A DNA stretch of 64,000 bases from a virus (lineage: Duplodnaviria; Caudoviricetes), in IMG/VR virus record IMGVR_UViG_3300005573_001331, positions 7,945 through 71,944 of that record. One strand, given 5' to 3'. The position numbers and the translations under genes are program-made. The notes under the pieces were generated by a model. The model did not search any database, was not told the DNA's origin, and saw only the letters and a list, made by a program, of their open reading frames with translations. Positions 6,085-55,567 of this stretch are shown piece by piece; position 1 is the first letter of the stretch, and each line of letters starts with the position of its first letter.

Positions 6085-6936
6085 TCAAAAGAGCTTTGAA
6101 GCTATTTTTGCTATGTCAAGATTGTAAAATACGCCAAGTGATACATACCTAGCAAAGGGGTAATAAGTGATGTTCATATACTTATAATACAACATGGCAC
6201 TTGCATCAAGGTTAAGATTGATGGTATGATTGCTACTGTTTACGTTGTCAAAACCTAAATTCGCTCTCAAAAGCACGCCAAGTGGAGGAAAAGCGCGTAC
6301 TGTCTGCACAGTTTTGTTTTCTACCACGGTCATGAGACCATTATACACGCTCGAATCGATGTAAACATGTACATTTTGTATCTTGATCCCAGGAACAAGA
6401 GAAGAGGTCTTTGATAGGAGCAATTTATTTGCATAGTCATAAAATAATGAGTCAGTAGTAAGAATAGGTGCAAATACACCCGTTAACTGATAGGAGGGAG
6501 CGAGAGTCGAAGGAGGCAAATAATACTCCGTGTAACCATGGTAAAAGAAAACTTTATTTACCTGTCCCTCAAAATTGACTCTGACGTACTTGTTTCCTGC
6601 GCTATCCTTGAGAGTATTAGCAAGCGCATTGCCATTATTTTTAAAACTATCCAACACAACCTGCATCTGCTGGATGTATATTAACATCTTCTTCTTGTCA
6701 TGCTCAAGATTTGTACTTAGCACAGCAAGAATTTGTATTGAATCCGCCTTTTGTTGCAGCTGTTGCTGGTAGGCTAACTCATTTTGATGCGATTGCTGTT
6801 TTATCAATGCAAGCTCTCTTGCTTGCCTTTGCATGGTACGTACAACAATTACGAGTGAAGTAGTTAGCCCGATGATAAGAACAACCAGCCATTTCCAAGG
6901 GGGATTGTTCATCCAATGTATTATACTTACAAGCAC
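6085..6936 (-). CDS. Membrane-anchored coiled-coil protein, possible i-spanin-like
   Basis: N-terminal TM helix (WLVVLIIGLTTSLVIVV), Q-rich coiled coil, beta-rich C-terminus; just upstream of the endolysin. Confidence 0.45.
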   Translation of the reverse strand: MLVSIIHWMNNPPWKWLVVLIIGLTTSLVIVVRTMQRQARELALIKQQSHQNELAYQQQLQQKADSIQILAVLSTNLEHDKKKMLIYIQQMQVVLDSFKNNGNALANTLKDSAGNKYVRVNFEGQVNKVFFYHGYTEYYLPPSTLAPSYQLTGVFAPILTTDSLFYDYANKLLLSKTSSLVPGIKIQNVHVYIDSSVYNGLMTVVENKTVQTVRAFPPLGVLLRANLGFDNVNSSNHTINLNLDASAMLYYKYMNITYYPFARYVSLGVFYNLDIAKIASKLF

Positions 6937-7266
6937 TCAGTCTTCCTTGTCAGTTGCAGGTCTTGATTTGATCTGTCGCATTGGCCATCGATTCGAAACA
7001 TACTGCAATCCAAACACACTGTTTCCTGGCAGATGCACAAGCTCTTGTTTGTCCTTATCTGACAATCGTATTTCCCAAATGCTCCACTTCTCTCTGTCAT
7101 CAAAACCCTTTATAGAGTCGTAATCAGCCCATACAACCACATACTTGCGATTGATGTGCTGGTCTTGTGGAAGGATACCGAATGCTACTGGATTGAATCC
7201 AGCTGGCACAACAGTAAAAACAGTGTTAAAGTATAAATCAGCTTGTTTAACGTGGTGTGAGCGCAT
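6937..7266 (-). CDS. Hypothetical protein
   Basis: 109 aa in-operon ORF. Confidence 0.5.
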   Translation of the reverse strand: MRSHHVKQADLYFNTVFTVVPAGFNPVAFGILPQDQHINRKYVVVWADYDSIKGFDDREKWSIWEIRLSDKDKQELVHLPGNSVFGLQYVSNRWPMRQIKSRPATDKED

Positions 7267-7924: not shown

Positions 7925-8221
7925 TCACACTCCTACAATTTCTCCGTTGATCTTTAGTGGCCACATTCCGTTTGTTTGAAACGGAATATTAAGAACTTGA
8001 AAATCGATAATATTGCTGACTAAGAACTGTCTTATGGTATCATTTCTCATAGTGTCCCATAGCCAAATCACAGTTTCACCAGATTTATTAGCCCCTATCT
8101 CGTAGATTCCTCCAGTATGTTGAACAATCTCGCCTGTGGTCTTCTTTTGATAGGAAAGTGATACCTGCAACTTATTTCTAATAGCGGTTGCTACTGCGTC
8201 GAAATTTGTTGTTAGATCCAT
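7925..8221 (-). CDS. Stand-alone WYL-domain protein
   Basis: AIRNKLQVSLSY...IWLWD...IRQFLVSNIIDFQVLNIPF follows the WYL pattern (AI...Y...R.F...I...F). Confidence 0.6.
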   Translation of the reverse strand: MDLTTNFDAVATAIRNKLQVSLSYQKKTTGEIVQHTGGIYEIGANKSGETVIWLWDTMRNDTIRQFLVSNIIDFQVLNIPFQTNGMWPLKINGEIVGV

Positions 8222-22028: not shown

Positions 22029-22721
22029 CTATATGGTATACTTGTGAAGCCGATTGGCTTCTATTTTGTGAAATTCTATTCCGGCTGAAAAGACTTTTCT
22101 TCCTATTCTTTCAGTTGAGAAGAAATATCGGTTACGATTTACGACAACAGTAAAGAGGGGCTTATAGCGTCGGTATGCGTAAATTGCTGACTCATGTTGT
22201 TCATTATCAGCAAGTGCTAAAATAGCCATGTCGCCATCAAGAGCATTGAGATAATCCTCAGCTAGTTCAATCCCAAATATCTCGATAATACGAAGAATTA
22301 ACTCAGAATCCACTTGCAGTTTTCGAGGCAGTTTCCAGTACTTAAACCTCTCTTCATACGCTATTAGGTTGCCGTTATGCACAATAGCAACATTAGCTTT
22401 ATCGTTTACGAGAGGTTGATCATTCTCATGCCCCAATCCAAAGATTGCAAGTCTATTCTGAGCAATGGCCATCGAAGCATGCCCAATATACTTAAGGTAA
22501 GTATCAAGATCAGCTTGTGAGGCTTTTAGAGGAGATCGAAAAGTTACAAGTTGATTACGATCAACTTGAACTTGCGTTTTGAGTTCATCGTAATCAACTT
22601 GACCGATCGTAATTCCGGTGCCATCTTGTCCACGTATTTCTGAAGCAATCAGTAGTTGCTTAAAGATGGCTCTCGCTTCTGCACCGTCACCTCCGACCAG
22701 TATACCTGTTATACCGCACAT
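22029..22721 (-). CDS. Class II (Ntn) glutamine amidotransferase, stand-alone Gat
   Basis: N-terminal MCG nucleophile, RGQDGTG, NDQP, HNG, DSE; start overlaps the queC stop. Confidence 0.85.
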   Translation of the reverse strand: MCGITGILVGGDGAEARAIFKQLLIASEIRGQDGTGITIGQVDYDELKTQVQVDRNQLVTFRSPLKASQADLDTYLKYIGHASMAIAQNRLAIFGLGHENDQPLVNDKANVAIVHNGNLIAYEERFKYWKLPRKLQVDSELILRIIEIFGIELAEDYLNALDGDMAILALADNEQHESAIYAYRRYKPLFTVVVNRNRYFFSTERIGRKVFSAGIEFHKIEANRLHKYTI

Positions 22722-23437
22722 TAGACCAACCTATACCTATTATCGATCTTTTGCAACCGATCCCAGGTTATTTCATCAACTAGCGGGTCTCGTTGTCCTG
22801 CTTCTTTGAAACCTTTAATACGCAGCTGGCAACTATCACACTCGAGACAAGGCTTGCTCCCCCCAGCATAGCATGACCACGTTTTTTCATAGGGAACTCC
22901 TAATTCGAGACCCCATTCGACAATTTCTGCTTTATACAGATGTAGTAACGGCGCCTTGAGTTCAATTGTCCCACCACTTACCGTCTTCTTTGTAGCAAGA
23001 TTTATCAGCTTCTGCCAAGCCTCTATGTATTCAGGCCTATCATCAGGGTAGCCACTAAAATCCTGCGCTGTAGCCCCGATGAAAATGGCATCAGCGTCTA
23101 CCTCCTCTGCGAACTGAAGAGCATAGGCTATAAAAAGTGTATTCCGAGCAGGTACGTATGTGGTAGGAATCTCCACTGACATCTCTTCAAGAGTTCTGTC
23201 GGTGGGGAGTACTGCTTTACCAGTCAACGAGGTGCCAGTTGGAGTTGGTAATGTGACAACCCTGTGCATCTTCGCACCGACAATAAGAGAGAGCTCTTCC
23301 GCGCAGGAAAGCTCTCTCTTATGCTTCTGACCATATAGAAAGGACAAGGTATAGAGATCGTAACCTTCTGATTTAGCAACAAAAAGTGTGGTACTTGAAT
23401 CCAATCCACCGCTTAATAAACAAATGCTCTTTTTCAT
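22721..23437 (-). CDS. queC: 7-cyano-7-deazaguanine synthase
   Basis: LSGGLDS, YGQKH, YVPARN, GYPD(D)R, TWSCY and the C-x8-C-x2-C-x2-C Zn site. Confidence 0.95.
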   Translation of the reverse strand: MKKSICLLSGGLDSSTTLFVAKSEGYDLYTLSFLYGQKHKRELSCAEELSLIVGAKMHRVVTLPTPTGTSLTGKAVLPTDRTLEEMSVEIPTTYVPARNTLFIAYALQFAEEVDADAIFIGATAQDFSGYPDDRPEYIEAWQKLINLATKKTVSGGTIELKAPLLHLYKAEIVEWGLELGVPYEKTWSCYAGGSKPCLECDSCQLRIKGFKEAGQRDPLVDEITWDRLQKIDNRYRLV

Positions 23438-30276: not shown

Positions 30277-30538
30277 GTCTCGTTACCTCTTGTTCCAATT
30301 CTTGCAATTCCTGCTCAATCTGCAGCTCCAGCTGTTGAATCTTCTCCTCTATATTGGTTTCGTCAACTCCGTATTTCTTGATCTCTTCAAGTTCGGCTTG
30401 GTATTGCTGTTTAAGAAGCGCTCTTTCTTTCTGAATACCAATCAGCTTCTCTTTCAGCATATCAACACGTTGGTGCAACGAAGCAAGCCTCGCCGCCTTG
30501 TCTGAATTGACATCTACTGATACCGTCTTCTGTATCAT
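30251..30538 (-). CDS. Pure coiled-coil protein
   Basis: 95 aa heptad-rich E/Q/L sequence. Confidence 0.6.
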   Translation of the reverse strand: MIQKTVSVDVNSDKAARLASLHQRVDMLKEKLIGIQKERALLKQQYQAELEEIKKYGVDETNIEEKIQQLELQIEQELQELEQEVTRLEHQASAF

Positions 30539-31140
30539 TTCTCCTCCTTTTCATTTGTTAAATAATTAAATGGCCGAAGCACTTTTGGGACTGCAATGTA
30601 ATTAGCCTGCGACTTCGCCGTTTCGAACAACTGTACGCCCTGTACTGTTACTCCCAATTTTGACATCTTACTGTCGACAATCTCAAAGAACCATTTGGTT
30701 AAATTCTCGGAGGTTGGACAAAAAGGTAGAACGGCAAAACTATTCAAAACCTCTGCAGCAAAAAGAGAGGGCAATTGTGGAGAAGTATACACAACGGTTC
30801 TTATCGAACTTAGGGGATCAGGCTCACTGAGCTTAATATCGGTTTGCATCCATGATAACAGCAGTGGCAGTGCTGGATCATGTTCATCAATTAAAAATTT
30901 GTGGTCGAGGTTATCATCGAGGAACTTCTTAAACCAGTTCAAATGCTTGAAGTCAGTAACCATGTTATTTTGCAACGTATCAGAGTATAGGCTTACTATA
31001 ACCCGACCGCTGTGCCCATGCAGCCCCCTGCACGTACAGGCGCCGTCACAGCTATACTCTTCATTAAGAGTTTGTGTCCAAACCCTGTGACCGTACTCAA
31101 AATCGAATTGCTTTGATATAATCCACATTGTTAGTGCCAC
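30535..31140 (-). CDS. queD: 6-carboxy-5,6,7,8-tetrahydropterin synthase
   Basis: FEYGHR, CRGLHGHS, DFKHL, LDHKFL, PTSENL, ET. Confidence 0.92.
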   Translation of the reverse strand: MALTMWIISKQFDFEYGHRVWTQTLNEEYSCDGACTCRGLHGHSGRVIVSLYSDTLQNNMVTDFKHLNWFKKFLDDNLDHKFLIDEHDPALPLLLSWMQTDIKLSEPDPLSSIRTVVYTSPQLPSLFAAEVLNSFAVLPFCPTSENLTKWFFEIVDSKMSKLGVTVQGVQLFETAKSQANYIAVPKVLRPFNYLTNEKEEK

Positions 31141-36080: not shown

Positions 36081-36644
36081 CTAACCGCGCTGTTGCGCAA
36101 AGGATTTTATTGCTCCCTCAATTAACTCTACTCTCTCCTTATGATCTTTGGGAAGTTGGATCACCTTTGTCTTGGAGCGAGCGAGTTTCGAAAACTCGTC
36201 AAACTTCTGCGCGATTGCCTGTTGAAAGCGCTTGCTCGTCGAGCGCACGCCATCATCTTCTAATACATCAAGAGGCGTCGTAACAAAAATAATGTCGTAC
36301 TCTGAAATAAAATGGGTAAACGCTGTATAACAGAAACGATAAACACTGTCACTAACCTTGTGACGATCGTGTAAATAACTCGTATAAACCATGCCATCGA
36401 GCAGGCAGCGATCATACAGAATAATCGGCGCCTTGTCCAGAGTTAAATTCATAAAATGACGAGCCAAGATCATCAATTGTGTGATGTTATTTCCCTTTTC
36501 ATTAATCGGAGCAAATGCTCGTACTGCACGAGCAACTTCCGGCGCGAGCTCAGCATAAAGAACACGCTTTCTTAACTCTTGTATAAGGGTTGTTTTCCCT
36601 GTTGATTGCGGCCCTGAAATTGCTATTCTCATCAGCACCTCCAA
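36081..36644 (-). CDS. P-loop nucleoside/nucleotide kinase (NadR/AAA_28-like)
   Basis: ISGPQSTGKTT, EVAR, YDRCLLD, DDGVR. Confidence 0.8.
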   Translation of the reverse strand: MEVLMRIAISGPQSTGKTTLIQELRKRVLYAELAPEVARAVRAFAPINEKGNNITQLMILARHFMNLTLDKAPIILYDRCLLDGMVYTSYLHDRHKVSDSVYRFCYTAFTHFISEYDIIFVTTPLDVLEDDGVRSTSKRFQQAIAQKFDEFSKLARSKTKVIQLPKDHKERVELIEGAIKSFAQQRG

Positions 36645-36652
36645 AATTAATA

Positions 36653-36871
36653 TTACAAATACTTTTTGAGATATTTAAAGAAATCTTTGGATTCGGTGAA
36701 TCTCATGGAGTCTTTAACTTTTACATAAGTAATAACAGTTCCGTCTCGATGAAGATCGATCGTAGCAATAAGTTCATCCCCCTTATAAAGAGTAACAGAA
36801 GCTAAATCCTCGACCATGCCTATCGCCCCAAATCTAACTTCGGGCCTATTTTTCCGTCTCTTCTTAAACAT
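36653..36871 (-). CDS. Hypothetical protein (likely start MFKKRR)
   Basis: GGAG RBS upstream of the ATG at 36871. Confidence 0.45.
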   Translation of the reverse strand: MFKKRRKNRPEVRFGAIGMVEDLASVTLYKGDELIATIDLHRDGTVITYVKVKDSMRFTESKDFFKYLKKYL

Positions 36872-37583
36872 GGACAACATCTCCATATCTGTGATCGTAC
36901 AAATATAGAATATCCTCATACATCCTCTCTATCGTTTCTCTGATCTTGTTGCGTTCTCGCTCGTTCGCATCCCAAGCAAAGAGATTAAGAAACAAGTATT
37001 GTGGATCAGGAAGCCGAAGGGTTCCTCCAAGGCGATGTACCCAAGTAAGATTAACAGAACCGCGCTTACTGAATACAATGCGCCCTTCAACAGTTCCAGT
37101 GTTTCTGGTTATGGTTAAAATCAATCCTTCTTCGCCTTTCGAGACTGTTACCTCTAATTCTCGCACAATTTCAGGAGATACATCCACCGCCATCTTTATA
37201 TTTAATTTCTTCCGATCTTCCAGAGCTTTTCGTACCGCTTCTCCAACACCGTTCCAAGTTTTCACATTCGGATTTGCGAGATCAGAAAATGTGTAAACTT
37301 GGTAATTGTCGTCAAGCGTTGGCGATGAAACTTCTCCTGTAATGAGCTGATTTCGTCTTGAATCATACAGCGCCTCCTCAACCCACTTTATGACATCCTT
37401 GGCAAGCTCCTCTGGAGAAGCATACCGATGCTGATAATGGCGGGTCTCGCCGTCGAAGATCTGCAGCGTGGAGTATCCAGCCTTACTAACAATGACGGAT
37501 ACCATACGTTGTCGCTCGCTAAATGTTAAACTTTCAAAAGTTGTCAATTCTTCTCCCGCGGGGGTATCTTCAACTAAGCTCAT
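36864..37583 (-). CDS. Hypothetical protein (likely start MSLVED)
   Basis: AGGAGAGG RBS before the ATG at 37583. Confidence 0.6.
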   Translation of the reverse strand: MSLVEDTPAGEELTTFESLTFSERQRMVSVIVSKAGYSTLQIFDGETRHYQHRYASPEELAKDVIKWVEEALYDSRRNQLITGEVSSPTLDDNYQVYTFSDLANPNVKTWNGVGEAVRKALEDRKKLNIKMAVDVSPEIVRELEVTVSKGEEGLILTITRNTGTVEGRIVFSKRGSVNLTWVHRLGGTLRLPDPQYLFLNLFAWDANERERNKIRETIERMYEDILYLYDHRYGDVVHV

Positions 37584-37644
37584 TGTACCTCTCCTTCGTT
37601 TAGATATTTTCAAGATATTCGTGAACATCCCCATATTCATCATT

Positions 37645-38193
37645 CTATTTACTAAGTTTGTCCTCTAAATGAGTAATAAAATCACACCAAAGCTCGATGC
37701 CGGTCTCTTGTAACTTATTCTTGTTACTTATTTGTTCAAGACCTGATAACGGAGGCGCTTCAATTTCCTTCACCAAGATAATCTCACTAATAACATCCTT
37801 TGTCGTAACACGATATATTATACACTTATTTTGGTTTTCTGCGTGACTACTAAAGATGTGGGGAAATTGCTTAATTACGCTTGGAGGCAGAGTTCTGTCG
37901 TAATTGTGCAGAGTTATTAGAAAATTCGTCGGTGTTAGATTGTAACTCAAAAGTTGATCAAAGAGAGCTTTGTAGTCCTTTGCACTGGGCTTCAATGGAA
38001 AGGTTTTTATCAGGGAAAGTGCAAAAAGTTCTTGTTTAACATTTGGATACTGATGGATCGGCTTTTCTCGGTTTGTAACGATCAGGTCAGGACGAAAACC
38101 TGTCCGCTTATAAATCTCTAATATTTCGTCTCCAGTCTGTGAGAAAAAGCTAATCCAATACTTTATTTGTCTATACGGCAACATATGTAGCAA
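37645..38193 (-). CDS. Degenerate PurN-fold formyltransferase-like protein (DpdN-like)
   Basis: WISFFSQTGDEI, PDLIVTN, ITLHNYDR and CIIYRVT are collinear with PurN-like formyltransferases; the catalytic N-x-H-P...G-P segment is mutated or deleted. Confidence 0.6.
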   Translation of the reverse strand: MLHMLPYRQIKYWISFFSQTGDEILEIYKRTGFRPDLIVTNREKPIHQYPNVKQELFALSLIKTFPLKPSAKDYKALFDQLLSYNLTPTNFLITLHNYDRTLPPSVIKQFPHIFSSHAENQNKCIIYRVTTKDVISEIILVKEIEAPPLSGLEQISNKNKLQETGIELWCDFITHLEDKLSK

Positions 38194-38974
38194 ACCTCCT
38201 AAATGTGGTTATATTGTGTAAAACATCGTGAAATTGATCGATACTCAATTCAAGCGTCAACAGCTCGGCCAGTTTGGTGGTATTCTTTTTATGAATCTCT
38301 CCCCTCTCATCATACCTAATTCCAAAAATACCTTGTACAACTGGATTTGACGTATCTACAGAATAAATGCTATCAAACGTACGATACTGGTACACTTCCT
38401 GAGGCAAAGCACATCCGAGAAGATGGTGAGGAGTTTTCGGTGAAAAAATTCCCTCTTGAATCCAGCGTAAAATCAATGCATATCTGCCTCGCGCGTATCT
38501 CTCCGCCCTCGTACTGACTATATCCCAGCTATCGTTTGCAAGATAATAAGAATACCCAAAGCTAATCCCTACGATGTCGGCGTGCGTCTTCATATAGTTG
38601 TAACAGGTGGTCAGCTCTTCATATGTTTTACCTTGAACAACACCCATTACAGCCGTATTTGCTGGTAAACTCTGCTTGCTAAAACGCTCAAAAAGTGAGA
38701 TTGTCTTGTCACAATCCTCTAAAGCATCGGGAGCTATTGCAACAGTCGGCTGTAAATCTCTTACCGCGGCTACGAAAAGAGAAAAATCAAACGCGGTTCC
38801 GAGCTCAAAGACGGAGTTATCGAGGTAAAGCTTTCTAGAGTTTGCACGGCAGGAGCTGTAATATTCCCGATACTCAGGATATTTGTCAAGTAGATGTACA
38901 AGACAGTAATCGTAATCGTTAAACATGCGAGAAACAGGTAATAACTGAAGGGGTACCTCGTGACTGATCAGCAT
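38171..38974 (-). CDS. dpdA: TGT-fold 7-deazaguanine transglycosylase-like protein (DpdA-like)
   Basis: LDNS, APD, VVQG, HHLLG and SVDTS align with the TGT/DpdA DSG, D, QG, HLLG and nucleophile-Asp motifs. Confidence 0.7.
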   Translation of the reverse strand: MLISHEVPLQLLPVSRMFNDYDYCLVHLLDKYPEYREYYSSCRANSRKLYLDNSVFELGTAFDFSLFVAAVRDLQPTVAIAPDALEDCDKTISLFERFSKQSLPANTAVMGVVQGKTYEELTTCYNYMKTHADIVGISFGYSYYLANDSWDIVSTRAERYARGRYALILRWIQEGIFSPKTPHHLLGCALPQEVYQYRTFDSIYSVDTSNPVVQGIFGIRYDERGEIHKKNTTKLAELLTLELSIDQFHDVLHNITTFRRFATYVAV

Positions 38975-38977
38975 ATC

Positions 38978-39481
38978 TTAACCTCTATTTGCTTTTACTT
39001 GATGACCAATTCCAATTAGCGTTTCAACAACCTTTTGCTGTCGCGATAAATTAGTGTTTAACTTATCCAAGTCATCCATCTTTTGCTGTGTGATCTTTAT
39101 CAACAGCTCAAGATCGTCAACATCTCTTTCAGCTTGCTCCTTTTGCTCAAATAAAGAGCGCAACTGCGTCATAACGGCAGCTTCCTGCAAACTTTGATTC
39201 TTTAACTGCTGTATTTCTATGCTCGTTGAAAGTAGTTTTGCTCGTTCAAGCGCGTAAGCAGTCTTGTAACCGCTTGCGGCTTTTCTTGCTTCCCTCAAAG
39301 CTTCGTGCATCTCTATCAGTATTTCCGCAACTCTACTGAGATAACCTTGAACTTTTGCATAAAGTGCATTGAGATTTCCAATATTCTGATCTGGATCGGA
39401 ATCCAGCTCTACTATCATCTGTTTTAGCTCCTGAATTTCAGCAACAAAATCAGGAAGGCTTTGAAATTCCAACATCGACAT
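38978..39481 (-). CDS. Coiled-coil protein, possible UvsY-like recombination mediator
   Basis: All-helical 167 aa directly downstream of recA; positional inference. Confidence 0.4.
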   Translation of the reverse strand: MSMLEFQSLPDFVAEIQELKQMIVELDSDPDQNIGNLNALYAKVQGYLSRVAEILIEMHEALREARKAASGYKTAYALERAKLLSTSIEIQQLKNQSLQEAAVMTQLRSLFEQKEQAERDVDDLELLIKITQQKMDDLDKLNTNLSRQQKVVETLIGIGHQVKANRG

Positions 39482-40588
39482 TTACTCAGCCTCTTCAGTC
39501 ACGTCTTCTATTTGTTCTTCCTGCTCAGTAATGGGAGAAACAACGTTTTCTCGGCGCGCATATTCGGCGAGACAGGCTTGATACAAATTATTGTACAACT
39601 GTGGTTGTTGTTTTGCTAATACTCTAAGTGCGTTAACTGCCTCAGCTTTACTCCCACCTAGCAGTGTTTCTCCTTTATTTTCGAGATTGTGGTAATAAGA
39701 GTTACCTCGACGGGTTATAAAGCCTAAATTATTCGCAAATTCGAGCAAATCCTTCTCTTTATCTATGCCGAGACCGAATATTATATCTACCTCTGTCTCC
39801 CTAAACGGTGGAGCAACCTTATTTTTTACAACTTTTATCTTCACTCGATTTCCCGTAGCATTGCCCTTGCTAGACTTTATCATTGTTATGCGTCTAACAT
39901 CGAGTCGTACACTCGAATAGAATTTAAGTGCTTTACCACCCGAGGTTGTTTCTTTAGGCCCATATCCACTTACTGCCATATTTGTGCGAATTTGATTAAT
40001 AAAGATTACACAAGTTTTTGTTTTTGCAATAATACTAACGAGTTTTCTCATTGCTTGTGACATAAGACGAGCCTGTGCACCCATTTGAGCATCTCCCATC
40101 TCTCCTTCTATCTCAGCTCGTGGTGTTAGAGCAGCTACACTGTCAACGACTACAACATCGACTGCTCCACTGGCAACGAGCATTTCCAGTATCGTGAGCG
40201 CTTGTTCGCCATATTCGGGTTGAGAAAGAGCAAGATTTGCAATATCCACGCCAATTCCCTTTGCATATGTGAGACTAAGGGCGTTCTCACTATCGATATA
40301 AGCAGCTGTACCACCATTACGTTGTACAGCTGCAACAATAAACATAGCAAGTGTGCTCTTTCCTGAAGATTCCGGACCAAAAATCTCAATAATTCTTCCT
40401 TTTGGTACACCGCCAATTCCAAGTATGGAGTCAATCGAAGCCGCTCCTGTTGGCCAATATTCAATTCCTGGTGGGGGTTCTTCTCCTAGTTTCATTATTG
40501 CTCCGCGTCCAAACTCTTTATTCACTGCTTCAAGAGCAGCTGCAAATGTTGCTTTCTTTCTGTCAATCAATGGTTCTTGCTTAGCCAC
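39482..40588 (-). CDS. recA: RecA recombinase
   Basis: GPESSGKST, VDSVAAL, ARLMSQAMRKL, FINQIR, GGKALKFYSSVRLD, KNKVAPPF. Confidence 0.98.
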   Translation of the reverse strand: MAKQEPLIDRKKATFAAALEAVNKEFGRGAIMKLGEEPPPGIEYWPTGAASIDSILGIGGVPKGRIIEIFGPESSGKSTLAMFIVAAVQRNGGTAAYIDSENALSLTYAKGIGVDIANLALSQPEYGEQALTILEMLVASGAVDVVVVDSVAALTPRAEIEGEMGDAQMGAQARLMSQAMRKLVSIIAKTKTCVIFINQIRTNMAVSGYGPKETTSGGKALKFYSSVRLDVRRITMIKSSKGNATGNRVKIKVVKNKVAPPFRETEVDIIFGLGIDKEKDLLEFANNLGFITRRGNSYYHNLENKGETLLGGSKAEAVNALRVLAKQQPQLYNNLYQACLAEYARRENVVSPITEQEEQIEDVTEEAE

Positions 40589-48431: not shown

Positions 48432-49109
48432 GTGATTACAATAGCAGAGAATATAACCGTACCGATGCTCTTACCACGACGTGGTAAGGGACATTCAGAA
48501 ATCACAGCAACCTTTAAAGTATTAACAACTACTGATGTACAGCCCTTAGATTTGTTGCAGCCTTTATCCACATTCTATCGCACGACACTTCTAAAAGACA
48601 CTCTTTCTGAATTGGCTCGTAAAATTGTACAGCAAAATCGCCTGGACAGCGTAGTAGTCGATGCTAGCTTCGGCTATGTTCTGGATCGCGTTTCCGCCTC
48701 TTTTATACCAACTGTCTATTCATATCCCTGCAATTATCGACTCTCTTCCGATGCGAAGGCTACTGAACACTTTGATATGTCAATAAAACTGCCTTTTCTT
48801 ATATTTGACGAACAAAAGCAACTAATGGCGAATGAATTAGAGGTAACTCTTATCAATCCTGCAAACAAAGTATTTTTAGAGGACATTATTGATAGAGTGC
48901 AACAGCTTTGCAAGGTAAAATTCTACCCCGCATCGTCAACTCAAGATGAGAAGGAAAATATAAGACGCGTACGTAGTGAAAAGGCACTACCAGAAGTATT
49001 GTATAAGTTCACATCTAGTGTAACAGATAGCAAGTGGGCAAAGTCTGTTACAGTCGTCGTTAGCTATCGTGATATATACAATAATTTCATTTTACGAACG
49101 GTTTTCTAG
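48432..49109 (+). CDS. Degenerate FolE2-like double T-fold protein lacking catalytic residues
   Basis: Collinear with the FolE2 at 54683 (e.g. FLEDIIDRVQ/WIEDLVAAVE, FYPASSTQDE/VYPLLKRPDE) but has no CPC, HNQRS or ESIH. Confidence 0.6.
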   Translation: MITIAENITVPMLLPRRGKGHSEITATFKVLTTTDVQPLDLLQPLSTFYRTTLLKDTLSELARKIVQQNRLDSVVVDASFGYVLDRVSASFIPTVYSYPCNYRLSSDAKATEHFDMSIKLPFLIFDEQKQLMANELEVTLINPANKVFLEDIIDRVQQLCKVKFYPASSTQDEKENIRRVRSEKALPEVLYKFTSSVTDSKWAKSVTVVVSYRDIYNNFILRTVF

Positions 49110-49131: not shown

Positions 49132-49890
49132 ATGACACATCCGAAGTTACATAAAGAGAAGTTATTACTGAGTGGTGACGGTGTATTTGAGACTATTCAA
49201 GGGGAAGGTCCTTCAATACAAACACCATCAGTTTTTATTCGGCTTCACAGCTGCAATTTGCACTGCGTTTTTGAAGGTGGGCAGATTTGTGACAGTTGGT
49301 ATACATGGAAGACAGATACAAAGGAGTATCTAACCGAATGGAGTCTCATTTCCGTCGAAGAATTACTTAAGGAAGTATTGCAATATAAATCCAGAAATAT
49401 AGTCTTTACAGGGGGCGAGCCGCTTCTGCAACAGAAGCAAATACTACAGTTTATGCAGTTATTTAGGACAAAAGTGCCTTCTAACGAGCGTGTAAGTTTT
49501 GAGATAGAGACCAATGCAACGATTAAGCCGTTGGAACAGTTTGAGGTATATACACAGGCTCATGTATTAAGATTCAATTGCTCCCCTAAACTCTCGAGTT
49601 CCGGCAACGATACAAAGCTAAGTATAAAAAGGGACGTATTGCAGTATTTTAATACTCTAAATTCGGTATTCAAGTTTGTGGTTACAAAAGATAGCGATAT
49701 AGAAGAGATTGAGCATTTACAAAACCAAATACCCCTGTCAAAAGAAAAGATCTGGATAATGCCGGAAGGCACAGACTCAGCTGACATTATCGACAAAACA
49801 CGTAATTTAGTAAAAATTGCAATCAAGAAGCAGTGGCATGTAACTACGCGATTGCAGGTAATACTTTGGGGAAATAAAAGAAGGGTGTGA
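49132..49890 (+). CDS. queE: 7-carboxy-7-deazaguanine synthase (radical SAM)
   Basis: FETIQGEG, FIRL, CNLHC-x7-CDS, TGGEP, IETN, SPKL, KFVV, MPEG, RLQ. Confidence 0.93.
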   Translation: MTHPKLHKEKLLLSGDGVFETIQGEGPSIQTPSVFIRLHSCNLHCVFEGGQICDSWYTWKTDTKEYLTEWSLISVEELLKEVLQYKSRNIVFTGGEPLLQQKQILQFMQLFRTKVPSNERVSFEIETNATIKPLEQFEVYTQAHVLRFNCSPKLSSSGNDTKLSIKRDVLQYFNTLNSVFKFVVTKDSDIEEIEHLQNQIPLSKEKIWIMPEGTDSADIIDKTRNLVKIAIKKQWHVTTRLQVILWGNKRRV

Positions 49891-54682: not shown

Positions 54683-55567
54683 ATGCAAGAACTACCCGAT
54701 GTACAAAACCAAAATGATACAAGAGGAGTCGATATTCAAAGAGTCGGTATAGTCGGACTACACTATCCGCTTATGGTAGAGCGAAAAGGAACGGGAGCGA
54801 GAGAAAAGGTATCTGCTACCGTGAAGCTCTTTGTTGGGCTGCCGAAAGAATACAAAGGTATAAACATGTCAAGACTGACCCAAAGCGTTATCGAAGCTTC
54901 AGACTCTGTTCTCTCACCAGAAACACTTCCAACTCTGCTTAAATTATTGCAAACGAAATTAAATAGTACAGATGCTTATGCCAGATTTGATTTTGATTAC
55001 TTTATCCCCAAAGAAACTCCAGCTACAAAATTAATAGCGCCACAGCGTTACAGGTGCTCATTTACTGGTATTCTAAAAGGAGATGAATACACATTTGTTC
55101 TTGGAGTTGAAGTAATCGGGGCCAGTGTTTGTCCATGCAGTCGAGAGATGTCCCTTCTCGAAAATCAGCCCGACTTATTACCAGAAAAATATAAAGACAC
55201 GATTCTTGAGAGCGGTGTCGCTAATAAGGTAGGTATGGGCGCTCATAACCAGCGTAGTAAGGTCTGTTTACAGATCGTGTCCACTGAAAAAATATGGATA
55301 GAGGATTTAGTTGCTGCAGTTGAAGAACGATTCTCAGCTCCCGTCTATCCTTTATTGAAGCGCCCCGATGAGCGTGCTGTAACAGAGATGGGCTATAATA
55401 ATGCTAAATTTGTAGAAGACATCGCGCGGGATCTTACATTATATCTTAATGGAGAACCAAAAATAACTGCTTGGGCCGTATCTGTTGAAAACTATGAAAG
55501 TATACATCCCTTTAATGTAAAAGCCTATCAAAAGAGTGACAATTGGAAATACAGCTACTCCGTGTAA
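54683..55567 (+). CDS. folE2: GTP cyclohydrolase IB
   Basis: PDVQ, RVGI, KGINMSR, CPCS, AHNQRS, LKRPDE, FVED, ESIH. Confidence 0.95.
   Translation: MQELPDVQNQNDTRGVDIQRVGIVGLHYPLMVERKGTGAREKVSATVKLFVGLPKEYKGINMSRLTQSVIEASDSVLSPETLPTLLKLLQTKLNSTDAYARFDFDYFIPKETPATKLIAPQRYRCSFTGILKGDEYTFVLGVEVIGASVCPCSREMSLLENQPDLLPEKYKDTILESGVANKVGMGAHNQRSKVCLQIVSTEKIWIEDLVAAVEERFSAPVYPLLKRPDERAVTEMGYNNAKFVEDIARDLTLYLNGEPKITAWAVSVENYESIHPFNVKAYQKSDNWKYSYSV

Follow-up and report, generated by a model that had tools for sequence, protein, structure and literature searches.

A catalytically eroded DpdN, apparently maintained by selection, in a DpdA3-type 7-deazaguanine operon of an uncultured phage

We have analyzed a stretch of 64,000 nt from a virus (Duplodnaviria; Caudoviricetes), positions 7,945 to 71,944 of the IMG/VR record IMGVR_UViG_3300005573_001331, and refer to this whole stretch as the window. 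The source contig has 71,944 bp and is about 41% complete by CheckV. The genome appears to be that of an uncultured large phage, and the region described here forms the core of an operon for DpdA3-type 7-deazaguanine modification of DNA: a DpdA3 transglycosylase, an open reading frame (ORF) derived from the preQ1 formyltransferase DpdN, and a P-loop kinase. The DpdN-derived ORF, called the relic below, has lost its catalytic residues and appears nevertheless to be made and kept under purifying selection. Taken as a whole, the observations are probably best explained by a DpdA3 operon in which DpdN is dead but selected, the synthesis of preQ1 has been abandoned, and the kinase is a companion of DpdA3. 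The elements concerned are:

38171..38974, minus strand: DpdA3-type guanine transglycosylase, 267 aa (tblastn, phrog_19058, AlphaFold2 (AF2) model)
38195..38200, minus strand: AGGAGG Shine-Dalgarno site of the relic (read from the sequence)
37645..38184, minus strand: DpdN relic, 179 aa from ATG, or 182 aa from a TTG at 38193 (PurN fold, BLASTP to immuto DpdN)
36081..36632, minus strand: P-loop kinase, 183 aa from ATG, with the ORF extending to 36644 (AAA_28 / NadR-RNK / deoxynucleoside-kinase-like)

DpdA3 and the DpdN relic

The initial annotation of this locus described the first gene as one of tRNA-guanine transglycosylase (TGT) fold that keeps both catalytic Asp positions (LDNS, SVDTS). 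Both residues, D52 and D207, are present, and the protein can be placed more narrowly, since by sequence it clearly belongs to the DpdA3 subfamily of DNA-guanine transglycosylases. In tblastn comparisons it shares 38.5% identity (E 5e-49) with the protein of the Flavobacterium immuto phage that is annotated DpdA and called DpdA3 in PMC10516641, and 43% identity (E 5e-51) with that of the Campylobacter CP220 group (CP220 gp056); it also matches phrog_19058 at 1e-57. Among 50,697 phage records DpdA3 matches three groups only, namely immuto, the CP220-type phages and, weakly, one Chryseobacterium phage. The AF2 model (pLDDT 93.5) has the TIM-barrel fold of the TGT family, with tRNA-guanine transglycosylases as its top Foldseek matches (E 2e-8, TM 0.6-0.67). 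The motifs YLDNS (D52), PDAL (D83) and SVDTSNP (D207) carry Asp residues that are invariant across 43 DpdA3 sequences, and the window protein retains all the invariant residues of its family. By motif and spacing only, D52, D83 and D207 map to D89, D143 and D264 of E. coli TGT, and the D207 motif (S-x-DTSNP) corresponds to SIDSTTP of bDpdA 7ui4. The CxCxxC zinc motif is absent from the window protein. A hidden Markov model (HMM) of DpdA3 detects neither the DpdA1 of phage 9g nor E. coli TGT, and when the DpdA3 profile was compared with E. coli TGT in hhalign the probability was 6.9%, with the VVQG and HLLG blocks alone aligned. We considered the acidity of DpdA3 (median pI 5.2) as an argument against DNA binding and rejected it, as 9g DpdA1 and E. 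coli TGT have pI values of 5.6 and 6.0. The 7-deazaguanine synthesis genes for FolE2, QueD, QueE and QueC are encoded on the same contig. One other viral contig (L014:6572-8228) carries two DpdA3-like ORFs in tandem.

Relatives were collected by an alignment-seeded scan of IMG/VR for DpdA3, which yielded at least 564 confirmed members, from which 80 loci were kept; fractions over 48 refer to the non-redundant viral DpdA3 loci for which 3 kb or more of downstream sequence is available. The canonical order across 85 DpdA3 loci is DpdA3, DpdN, kinase, QueF, QueC, and downstream of DpdA3 a DpdN is found in 43/48 loci and a QueF in 41/48.

The relic stands in the DpdN position of this order. As had been noticed at the outset, a PurN-like ORF overlaps the transglycosylase gene, by 14 nt if it starts at ATG 38184 or by 23 nt if it starts at TTG 38193; its offset from the dpdA3 start is +781, compared with about +790 in the relatives. 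In BLASTP it aligns with the DpdN of immuto (E 1e-18), the alignment being interrupted by a gap that coincides exactly with the NGHP loop, and an iterated DpdN HMM picks it up. On this evidence the relic descends from the preQ1 formyltransferase DpdN. The DpdN family profile in turn matches PurN chains in the PDB at E 1e-13, with the SxxGSx loop, NxHP and Asp aligned. We take the aligned Asn, His and Asp positions of DpdN to be the PurN catalytic residues (N106/H108/D144), and the N-terminal loop to be the counterpart of the PurN SGxGSN loop, which binds the phosphate of glycinamide ribonucleotide (GAR).

The erosion of the relic is extensive. Among 62 distinct DpdA3-linked DpdN proteins the blocks FSQTGSE, TLHG(Y/W)LRI, YNGHPG..YPELKGKDPQ and GxVxHxV..vDxGxI are conserved in all the others, and the relic retains the first alone; its corresponding motifs read FFSQTGDEI, TLHNYDR and FSSHAENQNKC. 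No other protein among the 62 has lost the whole set of catalytic Asn, two His residues, Asp and folate loop. The relic has neither the N-x-H-P motif nor the YPELKGKDPQ block, and the His of GxVxH and the Asp of vDxG are missing as well; its folate loop reads TLHNYDRT instead of TLHG(Y/W)LRI, with replacement of a Gly and a Leu shared by 95% or more of the family, and about 23 residues have been deleted. The losses are unevenly distributed. A tally of the 35 alignment columns in which 85% or more of the DpdN family agree shows that the relic keeps 9/10 positions in the N-terminal half and 7/25 in the C-terminal half (Fisher p 0.002). The initial annotation had seen an eroded PurN-like protein with its N-terminal loop kept, and this description holds, with the addition of the descent from DpdN. 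Because every catalytic residue and the folate loop have been lost, the relic is predicted to be unable to formylate.

Searches with the relic found few relatives. An exhaustive phmmer search against 1.84 billion representative proteins gave nothing above 58 bits except the relic itself, and its other matches mostly align to residues 11-118 only; a word-index homologue search returned only the relic, and there was no Pfam match at all. Branch lengths were tried as a test of faster evolution in the relic and discarded, as the whole lineage is an outlier (terminal branches of 1.23 for DpdA3, 1.74 for DpdN and 1.33 for the kinase). The 97 full-length DpdN matches include three further proteins without N.HP (P0008, P0022 and P0114). 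P0022, from locus L089, lies in an immuto-like operon (QueD, QueE, PRT, FolE, DpdA3, relic and kinase, then PolA, GroES and GroEL). In trees this case is not sister to the window, and its erosion is therefore independent; this independence is established only for the window and P0022/L089. The four eroded proteins have lost different sets of residues, with no convergence on a new motif. Two other proteins of the family have unusual architectures: P0005 has a degenerate DpdN-like half (no NxHP) in tandem with an intact DpdN, and in P0115 an amidohydrolase-like domain is fused to DpdN.

One account of such losses is that the relic is a decaying, functionless pseudogene, left behind once formylation became useless. 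In its favour, catalytic residues, folate loop and some 23 residues have disappeared, and no close relative was found among the 1.84 billion representatives. Comparison between strains largely refutes it, and we regard it as highly improbable. Three variants of the locus from other samples (90% cluster; L109, L110 and L111) were compared with the window and each other, giving six pairs; the contigs L006-L008 are identical to the window and so provide no dN/dS. The dN/dS of the relic is 0.06-0.11 in the six comparisons, about 0.1 across four strains whose dS reaches 0.29. Between the window and L109, dN is 0.027 and dS 0.29; only 11 amino acids change although 38 nucleotides differ, for which a rough binomial check, assuming a nonsynonymous share of 0.77, yields about 4e-10. 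All four strains share the deletion and an intact frame of 179 codons. The relic dN/dS is similar to that of the kinase (0.04-0.08) and an SSB-like gene (0.10), and exceeds the values for DpdA3 (0.00-0.04) and RecA (0.02-0.03 in comparisons with the window). Inside the 3' end of dpdA3 there is a perfect AGGAGG, 10 nt ahead of ATG 38184. The asymmetric retention, with the N-half kept and the C-half lost, also argues against simple decay, as does the second lineage (L089), which likewise keeps an eroded full-length ORF.

Because of the low dN/dS, the intact frame and the AGGAGG with its ATG, the relic appears not to be a pseudogene but to be made and selected, chiefly for its N-terminal subdomain; this half would correspond to the phosphate- and substrate-binding subdomain of PurN. 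The low dN/dS also fits the earlier suggestion of a non-catalytic partner, in that it is what is expected of a retained working protein. As a pseudo-enzyme form of DpdN under purifying selection the relic is distinctive, and would be a new feature of the known DpdA3 system. The dS of the relic against L109 and L111 (0.26-0.29) is higher than that of its neighbours in the same strain pairs (0.13-0.19), which could reflect recombination or a local mutation bias.

A selected protein might also have gained a new catalytic activity on the PurN scaffold, for example group transfer or hydrolysis on a 7-deazaguanine nucleotide. Purifying selection would be consistent with this, as would the retention of W12, S17, G20, E22, P34, T93, H95, P110 and W168. 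Against it, the rebuilt C-half has no recognisable motif and changes faster between strains (10/14 variable positions fall there), and the four eroded proteins share no new motif. We consider a new activity improbable.

The alternative that we favour, tentatively and with slightly less than even confidence, is that DpdN has been kept for another task that needs no catalysis, serving as binding or scaffold partner within a unit of DpdA3, DpdN and kinase. Natural gene fusions are known for both pairs: DpdA3::DpdN in P0036 (306 + 181 bits) and kinase::DpdN in P0025 (hhalign 89.6%). The overlap between the start of the relic and the stop of dpdA3 likewise speaks for coupling. By their sequences these fusions point to DpdA3 and the kinase as the partners of DpdN. 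A complex prediction for DpdA3 and the relic scored 0.31 against a mark of 0.32; it gave no verdict, and we draw nothing from it. That DpdN is dead here and yet selected would indicate some task other than formylation, and the second eroded full-length ORF (L089) fits such an extra role, selection having been gauged in the window lineage only.

Pathway genes and the expected base

The genes for precursor synthesis are spread over more than 30 kb in this phage:

22029..22721, minus strand: stand-alone class-II glutamine amidotransferase (Gat), directly after queC (Pfam GATase_6 6e-14)
22721..23437, minus strand: QueC, preQ0 synthase (Pfam QueC 3e-65; TIGR00364)
30535..31140, minus strand: QueD (Pfam PTPS 8e-25; phrog_2389)
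49132..49890, plus strand: QueE, radical SAM (Pfam Radical_SAM and Fer4_12; tblastn to immuto QueE)
54683..55567, plus strand: FolE2, GTP cyclohydrolase IB (Pfam GCHY-1 9e-75)

No QueF was found with them. The QueF model (PF14489) had no match at E<=1 in the 72-kb contig, which is about 41% complete, nor do the genes called in an additional 10 kb beyond the contig include a QueF. The QueF slot after DpdA3 is empty in the window, and in P0022/L089 QueF is missing exactly where immuto has it. A 225-aa ORF beside queE (48432-49109, plus strand) was considered as a hidden QueF and rejected, as it does not match the QueF HMM. This FolE2-like ORF has no Pfam or NCBIfam match; a protein atlas sets it among short FolE2-domain proteins (score 0.90, a lead only), and it may be a repurposed T-fold protein.

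The QueC of the window passes the NCBIfam equivalog model TIGR00364 (201 bits against a cut-off of 150). It scores 108 bits (E 8e-32) against the QueC domain of the Gat-QueC protein of phage 9g, versus 38 bits against the QueC of the DpdA3 relative L004; comparison with the CP220 QueC homologue (82 bits) does not discriminate between a nitrile and an amide product. The Gat begins MCGITG, which includes the catalytic Cys2, and aligns with residues 1-214 of 9g Gat-QueC at 25% identity (E 3e-6), although the GlmS, AsnB and PurF models match it about equally well. The two are separate ORFs, queC then Gat, rather than a Gat-QueC fusion, the stop of one overlapping the start of the other at 22721. 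By sequence the pair appears to be of the 9g type more than of the relatives' type. In 24 relatives a GATase_6 Gat also follows QueC, together with QueF and an intact DpdN (e.g. L021:13358-13987), and Gat alone therefore does not imply G+. An HMM of the relatives' Gat detects neither the window Gat nor that of 9g; the relatives' family probably splits glutamine for QueC instead of making G+.

Since QueF is gone from its slot and QueC and Gat are of the 9g type, we infer that this lineage stopped making preQ1, and that the phage would now insert preQ0, G+ or ADG; the candidate bases may thus be dPreQ0, dG+ and dADG. A swap of the late pathway towards G+ is plausible, and the likeness of QueC and Gat to 9g fits it. 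The initial annotation had proposed that the lineage moved from formyl-preQ1 to G+ made by Gat. The empty slot in both the window and L089 is in line with the first half of that proposal, with the reservation that the contig is incomplete. The second half has the resemblance to 9g Gat-QueC in its favour and is not established, given the 24 relatives that pair Gat with QueF and an intact DpdN.

Some observations tell against an abandoned preQ1 pathway. QueF could lie elsewhere in the genome, the sampled part of which is limited and in which the pathway genes are widely scattered; in that case the phage would still make a dPreQ1-type base and only the formylation would have been lost. The absence of QueF from 72 kb plus 10 kb, the slot being empty both here and in the independent L089, and the 9g type of QueC and Gat, unlike the QueC of QueF-bearing relatives, all stand against a hidden QueF, to which we give little weight. 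In addition, three loci (L034, L070 and L093) have an intact DpdN and no phage QueF in the stretch examined; they presumably use host or imported preQ1, L093 encoding a YhhQ-type transporter, and they imply that QueF loss need not cause erosion.

The kinase and the stage of base insertion

A P-loop kinase two genes after the relic had been reported initially, and is confirmed at 36081-36644 on the minus strand, with the refinement that the 239-aa ORF lying between is a strain-specific insertion (see below). It matches Pfam AAA_28 with 60.9 bits (cut-off 27, 2e-16) and the kinases of immuto and CP220 with E values of 7e-25 and 3e-16. All the invariant residues of 45 family members are present (including G10, G15, K16, R38, Q55, D77, R78, R133 and R170), and with them the P-loop, the DR motif and the LID Arg. 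The AF2 model (pLDDT 91) finds in Foldseek, in this order, the deoxyadenosine kinases of M. mycoides and Giardia, the ribosylnicotinamide kinase (RNK) domain of NadR, then deoxynucleoside kinase, deoxycytidine kinase and thymidylate kinase, a set that includes both nucleoside kinases and nucleoside monophosphate kinases. The modelled fold is thus of the small-molecule deoxynucleoside/nucleotide kinase type, and these structural neighbours all act on free nucleosides or nucleotides. The nearest curated families are the RNK domains of NadR.

The kinase is a regular companion of DpdA3. In 39/48 loci it is encoded downstream of DpdA3 at a distance of up to 4 kb, and it remains beside DpdA3 in loci without DpdN and QueF (CP220/CP21 and L010/L011). 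Homologues of the kinase in the 50,697 phage records are confined to two groups, the Flavobacterium immuto phages and the Campylobacter CP220-type phages, and no other group carries close DpdA3 homologues. Beside topoisomerase II and dUTPase, the Campylobacter phages encode one more paralogue of this DpdA3-linked kinase (L101 = CC_R7 6545-7081; CP220-type records).

Other genes for nucleotide metabolism are found near DpdA3 in the relatives. Directly upstream of DpdA3 there is a MazG/PRA-PH-like hydrolase in 15/49 loci, an HD + AAA_33 protein in CP220 and another P-loop protein in the Chryseobacterium phage, and a phosphoribosyltransferase (PRTase)-like gene is nearby in 24/49 loci. In L093 (8398-9455) a MazG pyrophosphohydrolase and a YhhQ-type (Vut_1) transporter come right after a kinase::DpdN fusion, and this 16-kb contig holds no synthesis genes.

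To our knowledge, complete replacement of G is found among 7-deazaguanine phages in those with DpdA3 only, and it is otherwise typical of pre-replicative routes, as for T4 hmC and the dZ phages. Two mechanisms compete: a modified dGTP has been proposed for the Campylobacter phages (as cited in PMC6884629, 2019), versus post-replicative exchange, proposed for all DpdA (PMC10516641, 2023). The latter paper associates DpdA3 with 100% G replacement and reports that DpdA3 alone could not be reconstituted in E. coli. No kinase is mentioned in either PMC10516641 or PMC6884629.

On the pre-replicative side, the unit of DpdA3, DpdN and kinase might act on free deoxynucleosides or deoxynucleotides before replication, in the manner of T4. 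We regard this as possible but doubtful; the gene evidence is in line with it. Rather unlikely, but worth stating, is the stronger form, in which one nucleotide-level assembly would exchange the base on a deoxynucleoside or dNMP, tailor it and phosphorylate it, with DpdN indispensable for structure or handover. If such an assembly exists, the window would contain a natural separation-of-function allele, with catalysis gone and the scaffold selected, and the inactivity of DpdA3 alone in E. coli would be explained. The initial annotation had taken the kinase as a hint of a pre-replicative route, and the neighbourhood, the distribution and the fusion have since added strong support to that hint; it is still an inference, and contradicts the post-replicative proposal of PMC10516641.

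The following points weigh against the nucleotide-level reading. Purifying selection shows that the relic has a function, not which function. The characterised enzymes of the TGT family, DpdA included, all act on polynucleotides and we know of none that acts on mononucleotides. DpdA3 clusters lie in general nucleotide-metabolism and replication regions, which inflates all neighbourhood signals, and 7/48 loci have DpdN without an adjacent kinase (6 of these with QueF), so that the kinase is not obligatory in cis. Finally, insertion after replication has been proposed for every DpdA (PMC10516641). Several of these points count in favour of the published model, in which DpdA3 exchanges guanine in finished DNA while the kinase, the MazG-like gene and the PRTase are ordinary pool or NAD-salvage genes that share the operon. 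The Asp pair of TGT catalysis retained in DpdA3 and the NadR RNK domains as nearest curated relatives of the kinase favour it further. It explains less well why the kinase subfamily is confined to the two phage groups with close DpdA3 homologues, why the kinase stays by DpdA3 where DpdN and QueF are absent, and why it is fused to DpdN in one lineage; the complete replacement of G and the inactivity of DpdA3 alone in E. coli (PMC10516641) also count against it. We regard the evidence for and against this model as evenly balanced.

The genes described above belong to a long minus-strand operon with the order recA, 167-aa ORF, DpdA3, PurN-like ORF, 239-aa ORF, 72-aa ORF and kinase, which continues past the kinase with a DUF669 SSB-like gene, an exonuclease, a PDDEXK resolvase, dUTPase, sbcCD and queD. 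The remaining features of the stretch are:

39482-40588, minus strand: recA, upstream in the operon
38978..39481, minus strand: 167-aa helical ORF between recA and dpdA3, abutting both
36864..37583, minus strand: 239-aa ORFan between the relic and the small ORF
36653..36871, minus strand: 72-aa ORF, kept between relic and kinase in the sister strains (72-80 aa; L006 and L109-L111 gene calls)

A megablast of 12 kb against phages gave no match. Family searches with the 167-aa ORF (Pfam, PHROG, NCBIfam) gave only a weak SMC coiled-coil match. It is the most constrained gene of the stretch, with dN = 0 in six of six strain comparisons and dS of 0.16-0.19 in five and 0.02 in one, and it sits where relatives have a MazG-like or HD hydrolase. 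The 239-aa ORF has no Pfam or PHROG match and finds only itself among 5.8 billion proteins. It is missing from the sister strains L109, L110 and L111, whose order is DpdA3, relic, 72-80 aa ORF, then kinase, and is a strain-specific insertion. The 72-aa ORF has no Pfam or PHROG family match. At the right end of the window (64000) three independent assemblies (L102-L104) all break, which suggests a genome terminus or a repeat.

Comparison with known systems

A close known counterpart is the system of the immuto phage, which has homologous DpdA3 (38.5% identity), DpdN (28%) and kinase (34%) in the same order as the window, within a wider synteny that includes PolA and GroEL. The window differs in its catalytically dead DpdN, its empty QueF slot and its FolE2 in place of FolE, and also in the other type of QueC and Gat, the dispersal of the pathway genes and an expected base that is not fdPreQ1. 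Annotators should be aware that a 'formyltransferase' beside DpdA3 is not sufficient grounds for predicting fdPreQ1. DpdN derives its fold from PurN (GAR transformylase), of which the relic retains the N-terminal loop region only.

CP220 (Firehammervirus, dADG) resembles the window in having DpdA3 (43% identity) followed directly by a homologous kinase, with neither DpdN activity nor QueF. Unlike the window, it has no remnant of DpdN, and an HD + AAA_33 protein precedes its DpdA3. The window QueC passes the curated model for preQ0 synthases, and therefore its pathway need not stop at ADG, as opposed to that of CP220.

Enterobacteria phage 9g makes dG+ with a Gat-QueC protein and DpdA1 (PMC6884629). 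The Gat and QueC of the window align to its two domains (E 3e-6 and 8e-32), and a G+ end product is therefore possible. In the window, as distinct from 9g, Gat and QueC are encoded separately and in the opposite order, and DpdA3 takes the place of DpdA1; 9g replaces only about 25% of G and has no kinase annotated near dpdA.

For the stage of insertion, the pathway of T4 (dCTPase gp56, dCMP hydroxymethylase gp42 and dNMP kinase gp1) serves as a working analogy, with no homology implied. T4 makes hm-dCTP with three enzymes, of which one cleaves a dNTP, one modifies a dNMP and one phosphorylates a dNMP. A similar logic can be read in the DpdA3 loci, where a MazG/PRA-PH or HD protein is followed by DpdA3, with or without DpdN, and then by the kinase. 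The window departs from T4 in that no recognisable dGTP-cleaving enzyme stands beside its DpdA3, and shares with it the succession of a putative base-modifying enzyme and a predicted small-molecule kinase.

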